Below are positions 2,347 to 39,565 of a DNA stretch of 39,565 nucleotides, piece by piece. Position 1 is the stretch's first letter. Each line of letters opens with the position of its first letter. Where the stretch lies: sequence record MW722083.1; one strand, given 5' to 3'. Origin of the DNA: Escherichia phage vB_EcoP_ZX5. A program made the position numbers and the translations under genes. The notes beneath the pieces are model-generated. The model had not been told where the DNA came from. It was given only the letters and a program-made list of their open reading frames with translations, and did not search any database.

Positions 2347-2422
2347 CTTATCTTCTCCATGCAATAACTGTATATTTATACAGTAGCAAATAATTTGTTT
2401 GCTATCCAGCACGTTTTGCAAA

Positions 2423-2541: not shown

Positions 2542-5500
2542 ATGACGGTCTCAACCGAAGTTGACCACAACGAATACACCGGTAACGGCGTTACGACATC
2601 GTTTCCGTATACTTTTCGAATTTTCAGAAAATCAGACCTGGTTGTTCAGGTGTCTGACCTGAACGGGAACGTAACAGAATTGGTTCTGGATACCGGTTAT
2701 ACGGTAACTGGGGCGGGCACTTATAGTGGCGGTTCTGTGGTTCTTCCGTCTCCGCTTGCTACTGGATGGCGAATTACGATAGATCGTGTGCTTGATGTAG
2801 TGCAGGAGACAGACCTTCGCAATCAGGGAAAATTTTTCCCCGAAGTGCATGAAGATGCCTTTGACTACCTGACGATGCTGATCCAGCAATGTTTTGGGTG
2901 GTTCAGACGTGCATTGATGAAACCATCTTTGCTTGCAAAATATTACGATGCAAAGCAAAACAAAATTTCTAACCTTGCAGATCCATCATTTGAGCAGGAC
3001 GCTGTAAATAATCGCTCAATGCGTAATTATGTCGATGCTGCAATCGCCGGGGTTGTTGGTGGTTTTGGTTGGTTTATTCAGTATGGTTCTGGGGCTGTGT
3101 ACCGAACGTTCCAGGATAAAATGCGTGATGCTATTAGCCCCAAAGATTTTGGAGCTGTTGGTGATGGTATAAATGACGATTCCACTGCAATAAGCGCGTG
3201 CCTTGAAGCCTCATCTCCAGGTTATAAAATTGACGGATTAGGGCTTACTTTTAAAGTATCAACTCTTCCGGATGTCAGTCGATTTAAAAATGCTCGTTTT
3301 TTATTTGAGAGAATACCGGGCCAGCCTCTTTTTTATGCTTCTGAAGATTTTATCCAGGGAGAGTTATTTAAAATTACAGATACACCGTGGTACAACGCCT
3401 GGACGCAGGATAAAACGTTTGTATATGACAATGTCATCTATGCGCCTTTTATGGCTGGAGACCGCCATGGTGTAAATAACCTCCATGTTGCATGGGTTCG
3501 CTCAGGAGATGACGGGAAGACCTGGACAACGCCGGAATGGCTTACAGATTTACATGAAAACTATCCCACAGTTAACTATCACTGTATGAGTATGGGGGTT
3601 GTCAGAAATCGCCTTTTTGCTGTAATTGAGACGCGGACCGTGAGAGGAAATAAACTGCAGGTTGCAGAGTTGTGGGATCGCCCAATGAGTCGCAGCCTTC
3701 GCGTTTATGGTGGTATAACGAAAGCAGCAAATCAGCAAGTCGCTTATATTCGCATTACTGATCACGGATTATTTGCTGGTGATTTTGTCAACTTCTCAAA
3801 CTCTGGTGTTACAGGTGTTACCGGGAATATGACGGTGACTACTGTTATTGATAAAAATACTTTTACAGTTACGACGCAAAATACCCAGGATGTGGATCAG
3901 AATAACGAGGGTAGATACTGGAGTTTTGGTACATCATTTCACTCGTCACCATGGAGAAAAACCAGTCTTGGAACTATTCCTTCTTTTGTTGACGGAAGCA
4001 CTCCTGTTACTGAGATTCACAGTTTTGCGACGATTAGCGATAACAGTTTTGCTGTTGGCTACCATAATGGTGATATTGGTCCACGCGAGCTTGGGATACT
4101 CTATTTCTCTGATGCTTTCGGTTCTCCTGGTAGCTTTGTTCGCAGACGCATACCTGCAGAATATGAGGCGAATGCATCTGAGCCATGTGTAAAATATTAT
4201 GATGGCATTCTGTATCTGACGACCAGGGGGACATTAAGTACTCAACCCGGTAGTTCATTGCACAGAAGCTCTGATTTAGGTACATCATGGAATTCTCTTC
4301 GCTTCCCAAATAATGTTCATCACTCAAACCTTCCTTTTGCCAAAGTTGGCGATGAGCTGATTATTTTTGGCAGTGAGCGCGCATTTGGTGAGTGGGAAGG
4401 AGGAGAACCTGATAACCGTTATGCAGGAAATTATCCAAGAACATTTATGACCAGAGTTAACGTCAATGAGTGGAGTCTGGATAATGTAGAGTGGGTTAAT
4501 GTTACTGATCAGATTTATCAGGGCGGAATAGTTAACTCTGCGGTTGGTGTTGGTTCAGTTTGTATCAAAGACAACTGGCTGTACTACATTTTCGGTGGGG
4601 AAGACTTTCTAAACCCATGGAGCATAGGGGATAACAACAGAAAATATCCTTATGTTCACGATGGTCACCCGGCTGATTTGTATTGTTTCAGGGTGAAAAT
4701 TAAACAGGAAGAATTTGTTTCAAGGGATTTTGTCTACGGAGCCACTCCTAACAGAACGCTTCCTACTTTTATGTCGACGTCAGGCGTGAGGACGGTTCCT
4801 GTACCCGTTGATTTCACAGATGATGTTGCCGTCCAGTCACTGACTGTCCATGCAGGTACATCAGGACAAGTTCGCGCGGAAGTCAAACTTGAGGGTAATT
4901 ACGCCATTATTGCGAAGAAAGTACCGTCTGATGATGTTACCGCTCAGAGATTAATCGTTAGCGGCGGTGAAACAACGTCTTCAGCAGATGGTGCAATGAT
5001 AACGTTGCATGGTTCCGGAAGCAGTACTCCACGTCGCGCGGTATATAACGCACTCGAACATCTTTTTGAGAACGGAGATGTTAAACCTTATCTTGATAAT
5101 GTAAATGCTCTTGGTGGTCCGGGAAACAGGTTCTCGACAGTTTATCTTGGCTCCAATCCTGTGGTTACCAGTGACGGAACATTAAAGACAGAGCCGGTCT
5201 CTCCTGACGAAGCATTGCTGGATGCCTGGGGTGACGTCAGGTATATCGCTTATAAATGGCTGAACGCTGTCGCTATAAAGGGGGAAGAAGGGGCGAGGAT
5301 ACATCATGGTGTAATCGCGCAGCAACTTCGTGATGTTCTTATTTCTCACGGACTCATGGAAGAAGAAAGCACAACATGCCGCTATGCCTTTCTTTGCTAT
5401 GACGATTATCCCGCAGTATATGATGACGTCATTACTGGCCAAAGGGAAATGCCGCTGACTGATAATGACGGGAGCATCATTGTTGATGAGGATGATAATC

Positions 5501-5661
5501 CAGTGATGGTAATGGAAGACATCATTGAGCGCGTTGAAATAACGCCAGCAGGATCTAGATGGGGGGTCAGACCTGATCTCTTATTCTATATCGAGGCAGC
5601 ATGGCAGCGCAGAGAAATGGATAAGATAAAAGAGCGGATTCAGTCTCTGGAAGAACGTTAA
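2542..5661 (+). CDS. tailspike: T7 gp17-like N-terminal anchor, pectate-lyase-like beta-helix signature, C-terminal S74-type intramolecular chaperone domain
   Basis: 1039-aa ORF with GGAGA SD; N-terminus GNGVTTSFPYTFRIFRKSDLVVQV; central DFGAVGDGINDDSTAI motif; C-terminal chaperone-like block. Confidence 0.85.
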   Translation: MTVSTEVDHNEYTGNGVTTSFPYTFRIFRKSDLVVQVSDLNGNVTELVLDTGYTVTGAGTYSGGSVVLPSPLATGWRITIDRVLDVVQETDLRNQGKFFPEVHEDAFDYLTMLIQQCFGWFRRALMKPSLLAKYYDAKQNKISNLADPSFEQDAVNNRSMRNYVDAAIAGVVGGFGWFIQYGSGAVYRTFQDKMRDAISPKDFGAVGDGINDDSTAISACLEASSPGYKIDGLGLTFKVSTLPDVSRFKNARFLFERIPGQPLFYASEDFIQGELFKITDTPWYNAWTQDKTFVYDNVIYAPFMAGDRHGVNNLHVAWVRSGDDGKTWTTPEWLTDLHENYPTVNYHCMSMGVVRNRLFAVIETRTVRGNKLQVAELWDRPMSRSLRVYGGITKAANQQVAYIRITDHGLFAGDFVNFSNSGVTGVTGNMTVTTVIDKNTFTVTTQNTQDVDQNNEGRYWSFGTSFHSSPWRKTSLGTIPSFVDGSTPVTEIHSFATISDNSFAVGYHNGDIGPRELGILYFSDAFGSPGSFVRRRIPAEYEANASEPCVKYYDGILYLTTRGTLSTQPGSSLHRSSDLGTSWNSLRFPNNVHHSNLPFAKVGDELIIFGSERAFGEWEGGEPDNRYAGNYPRTFMTRVNVNEWSLDNVEWVNVTDQIYQGGIVNSAVGVGSVCIKDNWLYYIFGGEDFLNPWSIGDNNRKYPYVHDGHPADLYCFRVKIKQEEFVSRDFVYGATPNRTLPTFMSTSGVRTVPVPVDFTDDVAVQSLTVHAGTSGQVRAEVKLEGNYAIIAKKVPSDDVTAQRLIVSGGETTSSADGAMITLHGSGSSTPRRAVYNALEHLFENGDVKPYLDNVNALGGPGNRFSTVYLGSNPVVTSDGTLKTEPVSPDEALLDAWGDVRYIAYKWLNAVAIKGEEGARIHHGVIAQQLRDVLISHGLMEEESTTCRYAFLCYDDYPAVYDDVITGQREMPLTDNDGSIIVDEDDNPVMVMEDIIERVEITPAGSRWGVRPDLLFYIEAAWQRREMDKIKERIQSLEER

Positions 5662-6667: not shown

Positions 6668-7286
6668 ACAATTCCAGCGAGCTGCTGGTATCAGCGAGGC
6701 ACTGGCCGCACGCTGGTTCTCGCATATAACTTCTGCGATGAAAGAGTTTGGTATCAGCAAAGCAGAAGATCAGGCAATGTTTATTGCTCAAGTCGGGCAT
6801 GAGTCTGGGGGCTTCACCAGGTTGCAGGAGAATTTCAACTACAGTGTCAGCGGACTGGCTAACTTCGTTCGGGCTGGGCGTCTCACTCAGGGGCAGGCTA
6901 ATGCACTGGGGCGCCGTGCTGGTGAACCACCATTGCCACTTGAGCGCCAGCGCGCGATCGCAAATCTGGTATACAGCAAACGCATGGGGAACAATGCCCC
7001 TGGTGATGGCTGGAATTACCGAGGGCGCGGACTTATCCAGATTACCGGTTTGAATAACTATCGTGATTGCGGAAACGGTCTGAAGGTTGACCTGCTGGAG
7101 AGCCCTGAACTGCTGGCGCAGGACGGATATGCGGCTCGTAGCGCGGCGTGGTTCTTCGCCAGCAAAGGATGCATGAAGTATACCGGCGATATTGCACGTG
7201 TAACTCTGATTATCAATGGTGGCCGGAACGGCATCGACGACCGGCGAGCGCGGTACATCACTGCCAGTAAGGTGCTGGCGGTATGA
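6657..7286 (+). CDS. endolysin, glycoside hydrolase family 19 (chitinase-like) type
   Basis: 209 aa from ATG 6657 with GAGGT SD; motifs [12 protein letters not shown] and [12 protein letters not shown]; the track start 6492 is an unsupported 5' extension. Confidence 0.85.
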
Positions 7287-7765
7287 TCTGGGCATTCGTA
7301 AAAGCATACTGGAAACAGTTTCTTATCGTGGCAGTGCTTGCTGTTCTGGTCATATCAGGAGTGGTTGCCTGGAATATACACGGCAGTCGCCAGTACGATG
7401 CCGGGTATGCTCAGGCGGAAGAAGACCGCAAAGCCGAAGAAGACAAAGTTCGTCAGTACTACGAACAGGAGAAAGTGACCAATGAACGTGAAGCTCAGCA
7501 GAGGATCGACCAGGCGAGCAATGATGCTCTTGATGCTGCCGCTAGCGCTGGCCGGTTGCAGCAACAACTCTTTGCCATCCGTGAGCAGCTCAGGCAGTAT
7601 AACGCCATTGTCGGCGCTGGGTCGTCAGCCGCAGACACCGGAGTTTTGCTTGCCGACGTGCTCAGCAAATCTCTCGAGAGAAACAGACAACTGGCAGAGT
7701 ATGCTGACCGGGCAGCCGAAGCAGGAAGAGTCTGCGAAAAACAGTACGACACTTTGACCAGATAG
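7283..7765 (+). CDS. i-spanin (Rz-like), N-terminal TM plus coiled coil
   Basis: ATGA overlap with endolysin stop; N-terminal [20 protein letters not shown], charged periplasmic coiled coil. Confidence 0.75.
7521..7757 (+). CDS. o-spanin (Rz1-like lipoprotein) nested in the +1 frame of the i-spanin gene
   Basis: [13 protein letters not shown] lipobox, Pro-rich, wholly embedded in 7283..7765. Confidence 0.7.
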   Translation: MMLLMLPLALAGCSNNSLPSVSSSGSITPLSALGRQPQTPEFCLPTCSANLSRETDNWQSMLTGQPKQEESAKNSTTL

Positions 7766-18857: not shown

Positions 18858-19207
18858 TGGACTATTCACAGTTAAGTGATTTTGAAATTAACAGAATGGT
18901 AGGAGACATAATTTTTAAAGGCCTTTGGGCGTGTAAACCGGAAACATCAGGGAATAACACCAACAAATGGTATTACGGAAATACTGATACAACTTTTGAG
19001 CCATTAAACCCTTTACCTGACTACTGCAATAATCCATCGGATGCATGGCCTATTATTGTTGATAATAAAATCAGTCTAACCTGCCACCATTCTCGCGGTG
19101 AGTGGTCAGCTGTTTTTAATACCGAGAACATTTGCTTTCATGCGAATAATCCACTCAGAGCCGCCATGATTGTATTTCTCATGATGCAGGAAAATCAGAA
19201 TGGCTAA
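18854..19207 (+). CDS. hypothetical protein
   Basis: 117-aa ORF, ATGA overlap with upstream gene. Confidence 0.5.
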   Translation: MMDYSQLSDFEINRMVGDIIFKGLWACKPETSGNNTNKWYYGNTDTTFEPLNPLPDYCNNPSDAWPIIVDNKISLTCHHSRGEWSAVFNTENICFHANNPLRAAMIVFLMMQENQNG

Positions 19208-19538
19208 ATCAGCAGCAGAGCGCAAAGCCGCTCAGAGAGCCAGACAAGTTGCATCTGGTGTGCGTAAGCTGGAAATTGTGCTTGATGCTCAGGAAATTGA
19301 AATGCTTGAGCGTAACTGTGCCGCGCGTCGCCCCGGGCGTGCGCCTTACGAATTTGGTGAGTATATAGCGTTACTGATCCGCCAGGATGATGCACGCGTG
19401 CACGGGCGTATAAAATCGATCAGCAGAAAACGTTGCGGTAAGTGCGGCGAGAGAGTTCCAGTTAATTCATGTCCGTGTAATGGTGACTCACAATGCTGGG
19501 TGACTAAAGGCTGGCATGAAACGAAATTAATAGTGTGA
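19200..19538 (+). CDS. small zinc-finger protein, candidate late-gene regulator
   Basis: 112 aa; C-terminal CGKCGERVPVNSCPCNGDSQC; last gene before the terminator preceding terS. Confidence 0.5.
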   Translation: MAKSAAERKAAQRARQVASGVRKLEIVLDAQEIEMLERNCAARRPGRAPYEFGEYIALLIRQDDARVHGRIKSISRKRCGKCGERVPVNSCPCNGDSQCWVTKGWHETKLIV

Positions 19539-19546
19539 CATGTCAC
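19535..19546. repeat. 12-bp perfect palindrome GTGACATGTCAC (copy 1) overlapping the stop codon of 19200..19538
   Basis: exact match, one of three copies. Confidence 0.9.
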
Positions 19547-21775: not shown

Positions 21776-21800
21776 AGCCAGCTCATCGGCTGGCTGTTTG
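21776..21800. terminator. hairpin between convergent terL and the minus-strand moron
   Basis: 7-bp stem AGCCAGC/GCTGGCT 21776-21782/21789-21795; U-tract better on minus strand. Confidence 0.45.
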
Positions 21801-21811
21801 TGACATGTCAC
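21800..21811. repeat. 12-bp perfect palindrome GTGACATGTCAC (copy 2)
   Basis: exact match 5 bp past the stop of 21816..22154 and abutting the hairpin. Confidence 0.9.
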
Positions 21812-36358: not shown

Positions 36359-38833
36359 ATGAGACAGGAATGTATACAAGCGGTTCAGCAGGCGGCGCAG
36401 CGCATGTTAACGGCGCGAGAAATACAGAACATTGAAGACCGCATTTATCGAAATATGCGCTCCATTGCTCGTGATGACCCTATGTCGTGGCGACAACTTT
36501 CCGAATCAGAGCGGCTATATCGAGCAGCACAATTGGCATCTGAAGAATTACAGCGAGAAGCGGCATTAAAGAAACGTCGTGTGGCCCTCACTATAGCCGC
36601 ACGTCAGAGATTGGATAAATTTATCAATAGCTATCAAGGGGCTGATGGGAAACTTGGCGCTCTTAACCGTACTATTGCTTTTAATGCAGACGGTAAATCG
36701 AATTTCCTCTCTGTTGAATCCAGAACAAAAGCCACTCGTGATTATGCATTGAGTCAATTGCAGGAGGCATTTGAAGCAGTTGATCCTCGCTTTTTTGGCC
36801 TGTTTGAAGATGAAGCTGGCGTGCGTGACCTGGTATATGAAATGCGAGGGCAAAATACTGGCAATGCTAAAGCAAGAAAAGGTGCTAAGGCGTGGAGAGA
36901 AGTGACAGAGCTACTGCGCCGCCGGTTTAATGATGCTGGTGGGGACATTGGCTATCTCGAAAACTGGGGGCTCCCTCAACATCATTCTATGGAAAAGGTT
37001 GGGGCGGTATCAAAGGATAAGTGGGTTAGCGATGTTATAGGTAAGCTGGATCGCAAATATTATACCCGAGTCGATGGACAACTGATGAACGATGCCGAGT
37101 TGTCTGCATTTCTTGGAGAGGCTTATAACACGATCGCTACTGGTGGGCTGAATAAGCTTACTGATACCGGAATGCGAATTTCCGGCGCACGTGCTAACCG
37201 GGGTAATGCATCACGACAGATACATTTCAAAGATGCAGATTCCTATCTGCAATATCAGCAACTTTATGGCGATCGCTCTCTATGGGAAATCATGGTCGGT
37301 CACCTGGAAGGTATCAGTAAAGATATTGCACTGGTGGAAACATATGGCCCAAACCCCGATCATGTTTTCCGCTCTCTTCTTGATCAGGTGAAGGCAGAAA
37401 CGGCAACAGCTAACCCGAGTAAAACCGGTAAAGTCGAGCGGCTGGCGAACAACACAGAGAATCTGTACAACTTTATTTCCGGAAAGACACAGCCTGTAGC
37501 GAATCCGCACATCGCGCGATGGTCTGACAATATCCGCAACTGGCTGGTTGCCAGCAGACTCGGATCCGCGTTGCTGTCATCGTTCTCTGATCTTGGAACC
37601 ATGTATCTGTCTGCGAAGGTTACCAACCTTCCAATGAACCAGTTATTCCGCAACCAGCTTGAAGCTATGGACCCAACGAACCGTACAGAACTTGCGCGGG
37701 CGCGCCGCGCTGGTCTGGCGATGGAATCTCTACTTGGCAGCGTTAACCGCTGGGCGATGGATAATATGGGGCCGTCTGTGTCTCGTTGGGCTGCAACGGC
37801 GGTAATGCGTGCCAGTGGGCTTACAGCATGGTCAGATGCGCACAAGCGCGCCTATGGCGTAACCATGATGGGAAGCCTGGGAGAAGTAGTGTCACGGACA
37901 CCAGACCTTCGTAGCCTCGATGATTCTGATTTTCGTATCCTGAAAAGCAAAGGGATTACTGACACAGACTGGAGCGTATGGAAGCTGGCGCAACAGGAGG
38001 ACTGGGGGAACGGTAATAATACGATGCTGACACCGGAAAGCATTATGCGTATCCCTGATTCAGCAGTTAAACATCTTGGTGAGCCTGAACGCGTGAAATT
38101 TGAGGCAATGCGTAAACTGCTCGGTGCCGTAACTGAAGAAGTTGATATGGCTGTTATTACACCGGGTGCACGTGAGCAACTGATAACCGGTTCTGGTATT
38201 CAGCGTGGAACATGGAAAGGTGAATTAACGAGAAGTGTTTTCCTGTTTAAATCGTTCCCTATCTCGGTGGTTATGCGTCACTGGTCACGCGCTATGGGTA
38301 TGCCGTCGGCTGGTGGGCGTGCGGCATATATTGCGACGTTTATTGCCAGTACGACCATTCTTGGCGCTTTGTCGCAGCAACTTAACGACCTTGCGTCTGG
38401 TCGTAATCCTCGCGAGATGACAGGAGAAGATGCTGCTAAATTTTGGCTTGGTGCTCTACTGAAAGGTGGTGGTCTTGGCCTTTACGGTGACTTTTTATTG
38501 TCAGATCACACTAGGTACGGAAGCGGCGCGCTGGCGTCGATGCTTGGCCCGGTAGCTGGTCTGGTTGATGACGTAGTGAAGATTGCTCAGGGCATACCGT
38601 TAAATGCTGTGGAAGGGAAGAATGAGCAGACTGGTGGTGATCTGGTTAAGCTGGGGAAAGGTCTGATGCCAGGTGCGAATCTCTGGTACTTAAAGGCGGC
38701 TCTCGATCACATGATCTTTAACCAGATGCAGGAGTATTTTTCACCAGGCTATTTGCGTAAAATGGAGCAACGTTCGAAGAAAGAGTTTAACCAGACATAC
38801 TGGTGGCGACCACAGGATGTCACTCCGCAATAA
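36359..38833 (+). CDS. large internal virion / ejection protein
   Basis: 824-aa ORF, last large gene of the late operon. Confidence 0.6.
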   Translation: MRQECIQAVQQAAQRMLTAREIQNIEDRIYRNMRSIARDDPMSWRQLSESERLYRAAQLASEELQREAALKKRRVALTIAARQRLDKFINSYQGADGKLGALNRTIAFNADGKSNFLSVESRTKATRDYALSQLQEAFEAVDPRFFGLFEDEAGVRDLVYEMRGQNTGNAKARKGAKAWREVTELLRRRFNDAGGDIGYLENWGLPQHHSMEKVGAVSKDKWVSDVIGKLDRKYYTRVDGQLMNDAELSAFLGEAYNTIATGGLNKLTDTGMRISGARANRGNASRQIHFKDADSYLQYQQLYGDRSLWEIMVGHLEGISKDIALVETYGPNPDHVFRSLLDQVKAETATANPSKTGKVERLANNTENLYNFISGKTQPVANPHIARWSDNIRNWLVASRLGSALLSSFSDLGTMYLSAKVTNLPMNQLFRNQLEAMDPTNRTELARARRAGLAMESLLGSVNRWAMDNMGPSVSRWAATAVMRASGLTAWSDAHKRAYGVTMMGSLGEVVSRTPDLRSLDDSDFRILKSKGITDTDWSVWKLAQQEDWGNGNNTMLTPESIMRIPDSAVKHLGEPERVKFEAMRKLLGAVTEEVDMAVITPGAREQLITGSGIQRGTWKGELTRSVFLFKSFPISVVMRHWSRAMGMPSAGGRAAYIATFIASTTILGALSQQLNDLASGRNPREMTGEDAAKFWLGALLKGGGLGLYGDFLLSDHTRYGSGALASMLGPVAGLVDDVVKIAQGIPLNAVEGKNEQTGGDLVKLGKGLMPGANLWYLKAALDHMIFNQMQEYFSPGYLRKMEQRSKKEFNQTYWWRPQDVTPQ

Positions 38834-38844
38834 AAGGAGATATG

Positions 38845-38967
38845 ATGGTTCAAATAACTTTTATTGTACTAATATGTGCAGCGTTTTTATGCTATTCATA
38901 CATTTTGATAAAAATGGGTTTCAATTGGAATCTCTGTTGCGTGCAGCGGCATGGTTCGGCTTTGTAG
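38845..38967 (+). CDS. small hydrophobic peptide (AT-rich moron)
   Basis: 40 aa not in the track; AAGGAG 38834-38839, ATG 38845 after 5-nt spacer; alternative overlapping 62-aa frame 38817..39005. Confidence 0.3.
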   Translation: MVQITFIVLICAAFLCYSYILIKMGFNWNLCCVQRHGSAL

Positions 38968-39052
38968 TATTCGGAATTGTATTGTTCGGAAGAATAATAA
39001 AATAACTAGTTAATTTGTGGATTGGTGCTGTTTTTCCATGATAGGGGTAATT

Positions 39053-39433
39053 ATGAGAAAAGTATTTTTGATTTTTGGATTTATGCTTCTCGTTGGATGC
39101 CAGTCAGCTGCACAGTTTGAAAGAAATATGCTTACGTGGCGCGGGCAGAGTATAGACGCAATGGTTCAGCAGTGGGGGTATCCTCAGGGAGAGCTTACAT
39201 CTCCAGATGGAAACAGAGTGTATGTTTACTCAAGCTCTGGTAGTTATAACGTACCACAAACCACAACGTATAATACTACGTCTAATCTAATTGGTAATAC
39301 TATATATTCAAACACATACGCAACAACTGATGGCGGTTATACACTCCATTTCAGTTGCTCTGTTTACGTTGAGTTTGGTGCTGATAAGATTATTAAAAAT
39401 GTTACATGGCGCGGTAATAATTGCGTTGCGTGA
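39053..39433 (+). CDS. lipoprotein, candidate superinfection-exclusion or surface-modifying moron
   Basis: MRKVFLIFGFMLLVGC signal peptide with lipobox; AT-rich relative to neighbours; followed by a terminator. Confidence 0.65.
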   Translation: MRKVFLIFGFMLLVGCQSAAQFERNMLTWRGQSIDAMVQQWGYPQGELTSPDGNRVYVYSSSGSYNVPQTTTYNTTSNLIGNTIYSNTYATTDGGYTLHFSCSVYVEFGADKIIKNVTWRGNNCVA

Positions 39434-39441
39434 CATGTCAC
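39430..39441. repeat. 12-bp perfect palindrome GTGACATGTCAC (copy 3) overlapping the lipoprotein stop codon
   Basis: exact match; abuts the terminator hairpin. Confidence 0.9.
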
Positions 39442-39467
39442 AGGCCGCTTTCGCGGCCTTGTTTTTA
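39442..39467 (+). terminator. intrinsic terminator after the lipoprotein gene
   Basis: 7-bp stem AGGCCGC/GCGGCCT with loop TTTC, then TGTTTTTA. Confidence 0.7.
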
Positions 39468-39565
39468 ACGAATGCCACCGCCACCCGGGCGGGAATCCGC
39501 AGAACGCCCACCGCAGCGGGAGCCGTCAGCGGCAGTATCGCTGTCGTGCTGACAACGACCGGCAA
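39465..39565 (-). CDS. possible 3' part of the junction-spanning secreted-peptide ORF (valid only if window end joins window start)
   Basis: frame continuous with 1..61 across the ends; stop TAA at 39467..39465 next to the convergent terminator. Confidence 0.25.
   Translation of the reverse strand, partial: AGRCQHDSDTAADGSRCGGRSADSRPGGGGIR

Follow-up and report, generated by a model that had tools for sequence, protein, structure and literature searches.

In the temperate podophage P22, the sieA gene adjoins gene 16 and comes directly behind the gene for the last ejection protein. From the inner membrane, SieA blocks the conduit of the P22 ejection proteins, with escape mutations in gp16 and gp20 (PMC10883804). 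In two further sources, Llp is described as a small lipoprotein of the inner leaflet of the outer membrane that binds FhuA (PMC9586334; 2026 preprint). The DNA analysed in this study, referred to as the window, is the whole 39,565-nucleotide (nt) stretch of Escherichia phage vB_EcoP_ZX5 (record MW722083.1), and the element in question lies at 38834-39467, behind the last ejection-protein gene. A first reading of the letters alone (hereafter the original prediction) had described this segment as an AT-rich terminal moron encoding a hydrophobic peptide of 40 amino acids (aa) and a 126-aa lipoprotein with its own terminator, and had proposed both products as candidate exclusion or lysogenic-conversion factors on the model of P22-like phages.

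Comparison of related genomes establishes the interval from the stop codon of the gp17-like ejection gene to a palindrome plus terminator as a slot that is prone to cassette exchange. By the same comparison, the slot of this phage holds a gene for a protein with two transmembrane (TM) helices, inactivated by a 1-nt deletion, and an intact lipoprotein gene. An exclusion or conversion role for the slot lipoprotein is a fair hypothesis, with a parallel in P22 sieA.

The variable slot and its boundaries

The best phage matches of the window were phiV10 and other members of Uetakevirus (epsilon15-like), with 95-99% identity over large parts of the regions compared, namely the slot region and the first 20 kb of the window. 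The gene order was of the phiV10/epsilon15 type, in which a small gene and a terminator come after three large internal virion genes, and a convergent operon running leftward lies beyond the terminator, ahead of the tailspike and lysis genes. These matches and this synteny rule out the P22-like (Lederbergvirus) identity on which the original prediction had relied, and point to phiV10/epsilon15 instead. When the end of the window was joined to its start, an intact 53-aa open reading frame (ORF) was obtained on the minus strand (39465-39565 plus 1-61), and the two ends of the window are contiguous in phage EC.W1-9. It follows that the window is a circular genome that was cut open arbitrarily; it represents the complete, circularly permuted genome of an epsilon15/phiV10-like temperate podophage. 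The 'terminal' location assigned to the cassette is an artefact of this cut and has no biological meaning.

The left edge of the slot is the TAA stop codon (38831-38833) of the third large internal virion (ejection) protein gene (36359..38833, plus strand). The ORF encodes an 824-aa protein in which no Pfam domain was found, and its homologues, phiV10 gp20 and epsilon15 gp17, are annotated as virion structural protein. In an alignment of the window, phiV10, phiv142-3 and APEC O1, identity was complete until the gp17-like stop codon, returned exactly at the 12-bp perfect palindrome GTGACATGTCAC that forms the right slot edge (39430..39441, exact match), and ran on from there through the terminator; the stretch in between was unrelated between phages. 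In phiV10 this stretch is occupied by gp21, a 46-aa two-helix protein annotated as 'putative integral membrane protein', in epsilon15 by gp18 (64 aa, two helices), and in phiv142-3 by a 57-aa two-helix protein together with a 118-aa polytopic membrane protein. Citrobacter braakii and Morganella carry phiV10-type peptides, Kluyvera a phiv142-3-type peptide and a 92-aa membrane protein, Citrobacter werkmanii a 102-aa secreted protein, and Pectobacterium and Pantoea unrelated lipoproteins of 159 and 102 aa, respectively. All slot occupants across the relatives were small envelope-targeted proteins. The exclusion-type position that had been proposed holds in so far as an accessory slot filled by unrelated envelope proteins follows the last ejection gene, but the phage is not P22-like.

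The AT-rich composition noted after the last ejection gene was confirmed. The GC content of 38834-39433 was 0.378, compared with a mean of 0.490 for the window (standard deviation 0.035, 600-nt segments), and no other 600-nt segment of the genome was as low. This composition marks the slot content as foreign.

The palindrome is not confined to the slot. Exactly three copies of GTGACATGTCAC were found in the window (19535-19546, 21800-21811 and 39430-39441) and three syntenic copies in epsilon15 (L044; 2142-2153, 19517-19528 and 39612-39623), with 0.06 expected by chance. One site ends a gp49-like regulator gene (19200..19538 in the window), another lies just behind the gene for the terminase large subunit, and the third closes the late operon; each adjoins a terminator, and at two of the three the palindrome provides the TGA stop of the preceding gene. 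It formed the right slot boundary in all 25 loci containing it, with differing occupants, and it supplies the TGA stop of the slot occupant whichever gene is present; in the window, the lipoprotein TGA (39431-39433) lies inside it. The palindrome could serve as a regulator-binding site or a recombination boundary, and no mention of its sequence was found in the literature searched.

The palindrome is followed by the Rho-independent terminator of the late (virion plus ejection) operon, identified at 39442..39467 on the plus strand by a terminator scan. Its hairpin, GGCCGC-TTTC-GCGGCC at 39442-39459, has a 7-bp stem with 6 G-C pairs and precedes TTGTTTTT; together with a small adjacent hairpin, the folding energy was -16.5 kcal/mol (z = -3.0 versus shuffles). 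The identical palindrome-plus-terminator lies behind differing slot genes in phiV10, phiv142-3, APEC O1 and epsilon15, and an operon terminator is annotated at this site in phiV10 and epsilon15. A strong terminator is thus present as predicted, but it is not specific to the cassette, being common to all slot variants and serving the whole late operon.

No sigma-70-like site was detected on the plus strand of 38846-39053 by a crude consensus scan, which could miss a weak or internal promoter, and none was found by a consensus scan upstream of the Klebsiella lipoprotein gene. The sequences upstream of the lipoprotein alleles are not conserved, and a promoter of the gene's own was not retained as a candidate after the scans of the window and Klebsiella. 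The simplest reading of the layout is that the lipoprotein gene is the last cistron of the late operon. Neither a transcriptome of a lysogen carrying the cassette nor relevant work on the slot genes of phiV10, epsilon15 or Uetakevirus was found in the literature; the transcriptome of the LF82 'Gally' prophage was set aside as a source on expression because it concerns a P22-like phage.

The slot lipoprotein and its predicted fold

The intact lipoprotein gene (39053..39433, plus strand) encodes 126 aa, and the ORF corresponds to the same coding sequence in RefSeq, WP_157905739.1, annotated as 'hypothetical protein' in APEC O1 and LS45. The lipoprotein had been correctly recognised by its length, its Ser/Thr/Asn/Tyr-rich composition and its LVGC lipobox, and these coordinates are its true ones. 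Its N-terminus reads MRKVFLIFGFMLLVGC, and residues 1-15 form the signal peptide (MRK-VFLIFGFMLLV-GC). The charged N-region, the hydrophobic core and the lipobox L-V-G-C, in which Cys16 (encoded at 39098-39100) is the lipidation site, are those of a signal peptidase II substrate. Cys16 is conserved without exception in 32 homologues and also in the Burkholderia protein. At position +2, the window protein has Gln and the 32-member alignment Gln or Ala, never Asp; Gln at +2 suggests sorting to the outer membrane's inner leaflet. The other invariant positions are W29, G31, GYP42-44, GN53-54, Y57, Y59, P68, G95, C102 and GNNC121-124, and a disulfide between C102 and C124 is probable.

The protein is a member of phrog_3716, a family without assigned function, which it matched over the full length of the profile (E = 5e-64, 215 bits; residues 11-126 against profile positions 1-116 of 116). 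It had no significant match in Pfam or NCBIfam and no PADLOC match to known defence systems; the 32 family members were also scanned against Pfam, where LPAM_1 matched 22 of them (best E = 1e-5). A first homologue search returned 37 clusters; with a profile search the family grew to 160, among them clusters from Proteus, Marinobacter and Burkholderia, and none had a domain annotation beyond the lipid-attachment motif. Homologues with 57-79% identity were found in Salmonella (one sequence on 593 contigs), Klebsiella, Shigella, Enterobacter, Raoultella and metagenomes. Pairwise ratios of nonsynonymous to synonymous substitution rates (dN/dS) were 0.05-0.11 where dS could be estimated, and synonymous sites were often saturated; the gene is thus old and under strong purifying selection. 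Judged by these substitution patterns, the lipoprotein gene is real and selected.

An AlphaFold model was built from the 32-sequence alignment (mean predicted local distance difference test score 85.9). It comprises a very short tether, two helices and a five- to six-stranded antiparallel sheet. The fold matches, with scores in brackets, were the CAP-associated N-terminal domain (4ifa; 9.1), YjgB/DUF4309 (7.5), BamE (7.3), a putative beta-lactamase-inhibitor protein (3d4e; 7.3), the type VI secretion system immunity protein BtiO (7.1) and OsmE (6.5). Foldseek returned weak BamE matches from the PDB (E about 0.15) and, from a viral library, an uncharacterised protein (E = 7.6e-6) and weak matches to SmpA/OmlA proteins of the Pseudomonas phages PP9W2 (E = 7e-3) and B3 (E = 0.14). 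The family profile searched against PDB sequences gave only a weak match, to the CAP-associated N-terminal domain 4h0a (E = 0.015). Membership of the BamE family was ruled out on sequence, since neither the query nor any of the 32 members gave an SmpA_OmlA match in Pfam with E <= 1, and hhalign against E. coli BamE aligned the signal peptide only, with a probability of 3%. On the model, the lipoprotein has a predicted BamE/BLIP-like fold, and it stands outside the BamE family. The BamE/SmpA-OmlA, BLIP-like, OsmE, YjgB/DUF4309, CAP-associated and BtiO domains all share two helices on an antiparallel sheet, as predicted here, and BamE and OsmE are lipoproteins like the window protein; compared with BamE/BLIP-like domains, the window protein has a conserved Cys pair and an additional long beta-hairpin region in which Ser, Thr, Asn and Tyr are abundant.

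An o-spanin (Rz1-like) role was also considered for the slot lipoprotein and is excluded because the phage has its own Rz/Rz1 pair in the lysis cassette, about 31 kb away. A DUF2514 (Rz-like) gene (7283..7765; E = 2e-43) contains an embedded out-of-frame lipoprotein ORF (7482..7757, lipobox LAGC), and by this arrangement the two are a typical embedded i-spanin/o-spanin pair.

The genomic contexts of the family were diverse. In Salmonella, in Shigella-type, other enterobacterial and metagenomic alleles (the L022 type), the gene starts 10-11 nt past the gp17-like stop codon, and in the abutting alleles from Salmonella, Shigella-type and other enterobacterial contigs the ribosome-binding site (RBS) overlaps that stop. 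A 143-nt gap separates the two genes in Klebsiella. In Proteus, two large ejection-protein genes come first, then a gene for a two-helix membrane protein of 99 aa, and then the lipoprotein gene. Burkholderia phage vB_E332 and a B. multivorans prophage carry a distant homologue that retains the lipobox, the GYP motif and the two Cys; there it fills the same slot from the opposite strand, in convergent orientation to the ejection genes, and this implies that it is transcribed independently. The tailspikes that accompany the lipoprotein vary (endosialidase, GDSL esterase, P22-type, NAGPA and S74), and this diversity indicates linkage to the ejection module and not to the primary receptor.

Outside phages, the Marinobacter homologue is a cassette in a chromosomal integron, flanked by attC-like TAACAAG...GCGTTA repeats, and the integrase scored 434 bits against TIGR02249 (cut-off 265). 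The other cassettes of this Marinobacter sp. F3R08 array (L038, 4186-14378) encode several GNAT acetyltransferases, a DUF2971 protein and a TIR-domain protein. Distant homologues with 41% and 30% identity were found in ordinary chromosomal contexts. As to homology to a housekeeping lipoprotein, which had been named as an argument for host origin, there are cellular relatives, but none has a known function. The integron and chromosomal occurrences indicate that the lipoprotein works on its own, and phages probably captured it from a cellular family.

The small gene and the prophage context

An AAGGAG RBS was read, as predicted, at 38834..38839 (plus strand), directly after the TAA of the 824-aa gene and 5 nt before the ATG at 38845. 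The frame behind it (38845..38967, plus strand) encodes 40 aa (41 aa from the ATG at 38842), of which the first part is a TM helix and the remainder an out-of-frame tail, MGFNWNLCCVQRHGSAL; hydropathy indicates a single helix. Past the midpoint of this ORF, the -1 frame is open to 39005 (38904..39005, plus strand), and encodes a loop and a second hydrophobic TM helix, FDKNGFQLESLLRAAAWFGFVVFGIVLFGRIIK, which matched the second helix of the phiv142-3 57-aa protein (BLASTP E = 1e-4). A database search with the two halves fused returned the intact single-frame homologues P0038 (54 aa; MSHIIFIVIISGAFLCYSYAFDKKGFSLEPQARAAAWFGFVVFGLVLLGRLVGN) and P0039 (52 aa), whose genes directly follow an 824-aa gene in other contigs. 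In the DNA alignment (A3), a 1-nt gap was located in the window at TACA-TTTTGAT, at about 38902-38907.

The restored small protein has two hydrophobic segments, like phiV10 gp21 and epsilon15 gp18, with which it shares the slot and the 46-64-aa two-helix architecture. The sequences of gp21 and gp18 are unrelated to that of the small gene, whose nearest relatives are P0038, P0039 and the 57-58-aa proteins of phiv142-3 and Kluyvera; unlike gp21 and gp18, the window copy has the 1-nt deletion and its second helix cannot be made. A metagenomic sister allele (L034), linked to an identical lipoprotein, has a further deletion of 26 nt that restores the frame at the cost of most of helix 1 and leaves 44 aa. 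All 34 E. coli copies of the cassette were 99.5-100% identical over a 220-nt segment with no indel reported, and the frameshift thus appears to be common to all of them. In APEC O1 and LS45, RefSeq has no annotation for the small ORF. We read the small gene as a pseudogene, the stump of a 52-54-aa two-helix membrane protein, on the basis of this alignment. The 40-aa hydrophobic peptide of the original prediction does exist as an ORF with one hydrophobic helix, but it is a frameshift remnant and not an intact gene, given that P0038 and P0039 span both halves in one frame. Consequently, only one of the two proposed factors is intact.

Two readings would keep the small gene functional. Programmed -1 ribosomal frameshifting would yield both the 40-aa product and a full 53-aa 2-TM product, and it would draw on the downstream frame being -1 and open to 39005, on the A-run ATAAAAATG just downstream of the junction and on the near-identity of the 34 E. 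coli cassettes without reported indel. However, inspection of the junction revealed no in-frame slippery heptamer of the form X XXY YYZ, the intact homologues simply have one extra nucleotide, the loss of 26 more nt and most of helix 1 in the sister allele is typical of decay, and the identity of the 34 copies reflects one recent cassette clone; we give this reading very little credence. Hardly more probable is the self-contained moron with its own signals and two functional products, the 40-aa peptide and the lipoprotein, both expressed from the prophage. The foreign composition, the strong RBS with an open 40-aa frame and the terminator downstream all agree with it, and yet the 40-aa frame is a truncated 52-54-aa gene with its second half out of frame, the small ORF is left unannotated by RefSeq, all slot variants share the terminator and the scans revealed no promoter. 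The small-gene alignment largely refutes this reading. The deviating composition expected of a moron is present, but with no detected promoter and a terminator shared with the whole operon the definition applies only in part.

The reading as a decayed gene leaves an earlier pairing of two membrane proteins in the slot. The Proteus mirabilis prophage (L036, 6683-7387), in which the 99-aa two-helix membrane protein lies directly ahead of the lipoprotein homologue, has the arrangement of a small inner-membrane protein plus an outer-membrane lipoprotein that the window had before the frameshift. Such pairs might work together.

Among 5426 complete E. coli genomes, 557 matched part of an 866-nt query, and about 1 in 10 carries an epsilon15-like prophage. 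The whole cassette was present in only 34 of the 5426, at 99.5-100% identity, and the lipoprotein gene in only 35; 34 of these carriers have the allele and the prophage flanks of the window at 99.5-100% identity, and the remaining one has a divergent allele (75.6%). APEC O1 and the O7:K1 strain CE10 are among the carriers with a match of >=99.8%. For the 1039-aa tailspike of the window (2542..5661), the APEC O1 annotation reads endosialidase catalytic beta-propeller protein; together with the K1 carriers, the tailspike suggests a K1-capsule-specific, epsilon15-like prophage.

A near-consensus LexA box, TACTGTATAAATATACAGTT, is located at 2366-2385 (minus strand) of the window, between the tailspike gene and a leftward 86-aa gene, and is also found in epsilon15 (L032, 5842-5861). 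The 86-aa gene heads an operon with a BRO-N antirepressor-like gene, which runs toward the slot and ends at the shared terminator region. In the epsilon15-like phage SPC32H, an SOS-controlled antirepressor switch has reportedly been described, and the LexA box ahead of the antirepressor-like operon fits a switch of this type.

The convergent 53-aa gene that spans the joined ends lies outside the cassette; its 3' part is at 39465..39565 on the minus strand, continuing at 1-61. Its product reads MKKAFAALFVLLSLVASTQAFAGRCQHDSDTAADGSRCGGRSADSRPGGGGIR and is a Gly/Arg-rich secreted protein with two Cys (MKKAFAALFVLLSLVASTQAFA/GRCQHD...), designated 'transmembrane anchored protein' and annotated in APEC O1, LS45 and TL-2011b. 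The stop codon of this gene overlaps the T-tract of the terminator. The segment comprising the 53-aa gene and the terminator is 97.8% identical in the otherwise different phage TL-2011b, which indicates that the segment itself is mobile.

Candidate functions and comparison with known systems

We tentatively propose, while leaving considerable room for other functions, that the slot lipoprotein acts in the outer membrane or periplasm to keep phages from entering. Its domain, compact, BamE/BLIP-like and probably disulfide-bonded, would sit on a very short tether and bind a protein partner at the outer-membrane or periplasmic interface. It may mask the periplasmic face of an outer-membrane protein that is needed by incoming podophages, or it may prevent the trans-envelope conduit from forming by binding core proteins after their ejection; in either case superinfecting phages would be excluded. 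A lipoprotein made late would also keep progeny from firing into cell debris, a protection analogous to that by the Cor/Llp lipoproteins for FhuA-dependent phages and by SieA at the inner membrane for P22. The usual 2-TM slot proteins would be the inner-membrane equivalent of the lipoprotein, and the fact that the 2-TM gene decayed in the presence of the lipoprotein hints at redundancy between the two. A more specific version, which we consider rather doubtful, would make the lipoprotein a member of a mobile outer-membrane BamE/BLIP-fold family and the counterpart of SieA, binding ejected core proteins or, from the periplasmic side, an outer-membrane protein such as BamA and thereby aborting conduit assembly, with the slot exchanging inner- and outer-membrane blockers, some of which circulate as integron cassettes.

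Several observations weigh against the entry-blocking proposal. The lipoprotein has no match in PADLOC, Pfam or NCBIfam, and its blocking role is a prediction. Strong purifying selection and ancient divergence are, on the substitution data, not the signature of an arms-race interface. Classical exclusion expressed from the prophage is not implied, since no promoter was found and most alleles abut gp17. Only about 6% of E. coli epsilon15-like prophages carry the lipoprotein gene (35 versus 557 genomes). Distant members lie in ordinary chromosomal neighbourhoods, and the ancestral function was therefore probably cellular and need not concern phages.

Two other functions were considered. Like lambda Bor, the slot lipoprotein could be a host-fitness (lysogenic-conversion) factor with no relation to phage entry, which changes envelope properties such as serum resistance, stress tolerance or adhesion and benefits extra-intestinal K1 strains such as APEC O1, CE10 and IAI39. 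Carriers do include K1 pathogens, cellular relatives are found in ordinary chromosomal surroundings and among the general adaptive cassettes of an integron array, BamE and OsmE are envelope lipoproteins of similar fold, and purifying selection suits a conserved cellular partner. We consider this function unlikely nonetheless, because a last late-operon cistron with no detected promoter argues against steady expression in the lysogen, the family spans many hosts and tailspikes rather than one pathotype, and the tight linkage to ejection genes across four host genera and in two orientations is left unexplained. The other candidate function is that of a periplasmic inhibitor or immunity protein that acts in the phage's own lytic cycle, in which the BLIP/BamE-like domain would bind and neutralise an enzyme; candidate targets are the lytic-transglycosylase activity of the ejection proteins (as protection from lysis from without) or, late in infection, the BAM machinery or an envelope enzyme of the host. 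Co-transcription with the late genes is the simplest reading, and epsilon15 gp15 and the middle ejection protein of the Burkholderia phage are annotated as lytic-transglycosylase-like. However, the gene is dispensable, most relatives with near-identical ejection proteins hold unrelated occupants, the Burkholderia copy lies on the strand opposite to the late operon, and the family is present outside phages too, so that this function appears less probable still than a host-fitness role.

If the entry-blocking proposal is true, it would provide the first exclusion function other than O-antigen modification that is known to us for the epsilon15/phiV10 group, and would give a handle on the outer-membrane step of DNA delivery in epsilon15-like podophages. 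The lipoprotein allele is common in Salmonella. As things stand, the cassette consists of a pseudogene and an accessory gene of the ordinary hypothetical kind. This analysis was most useful in defining the slot and the conserved palindrome that bounds it, and a slot with fixed edges and interchangeable envelope proteins offers a compact natural library of candidate entry blockers that would be cheap to screen.

Among the known systems, P22 SieA resembles the slot in position, since it is an accessory envelope protein of a temperate podophage whose gene comes next after that for the last ejection protein. Homology to SieA was not detected, in that four profile libraries returned no named exclusion family; a direct pairwise comparison was not made. 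The usual 2-TM proteins of the slot are closer analogues of SieA than the lipoprotein, and the present case differs in that the intact product is a predicted outer-membrane lipoprotein with no detected promoter and that the lineage is Uetakevirus. Cor (phi80, N15, HK022 and T1), Llp (T5) and the window protein are all small phage lipoproteins with a predicted or known location in the inner leaflet of the outer membrane, encoded beside entry or adsorption genes, dispensable for virion production and provided with conserved cysteines. No Pfam or PHROG sequence link joins Cor/Llp to the window lipoprotein, and no Cor/Llp structure is among the fold matches listed above. At about 110 residues, the mature window lipoprotein is larger than Llp or Cor. 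In contrast to the phages that carry Cor and Llp, the window phage is a podovirus that adsorbs to capsule or O-antigen, and a blocking role of its lipoprotein is predicted.

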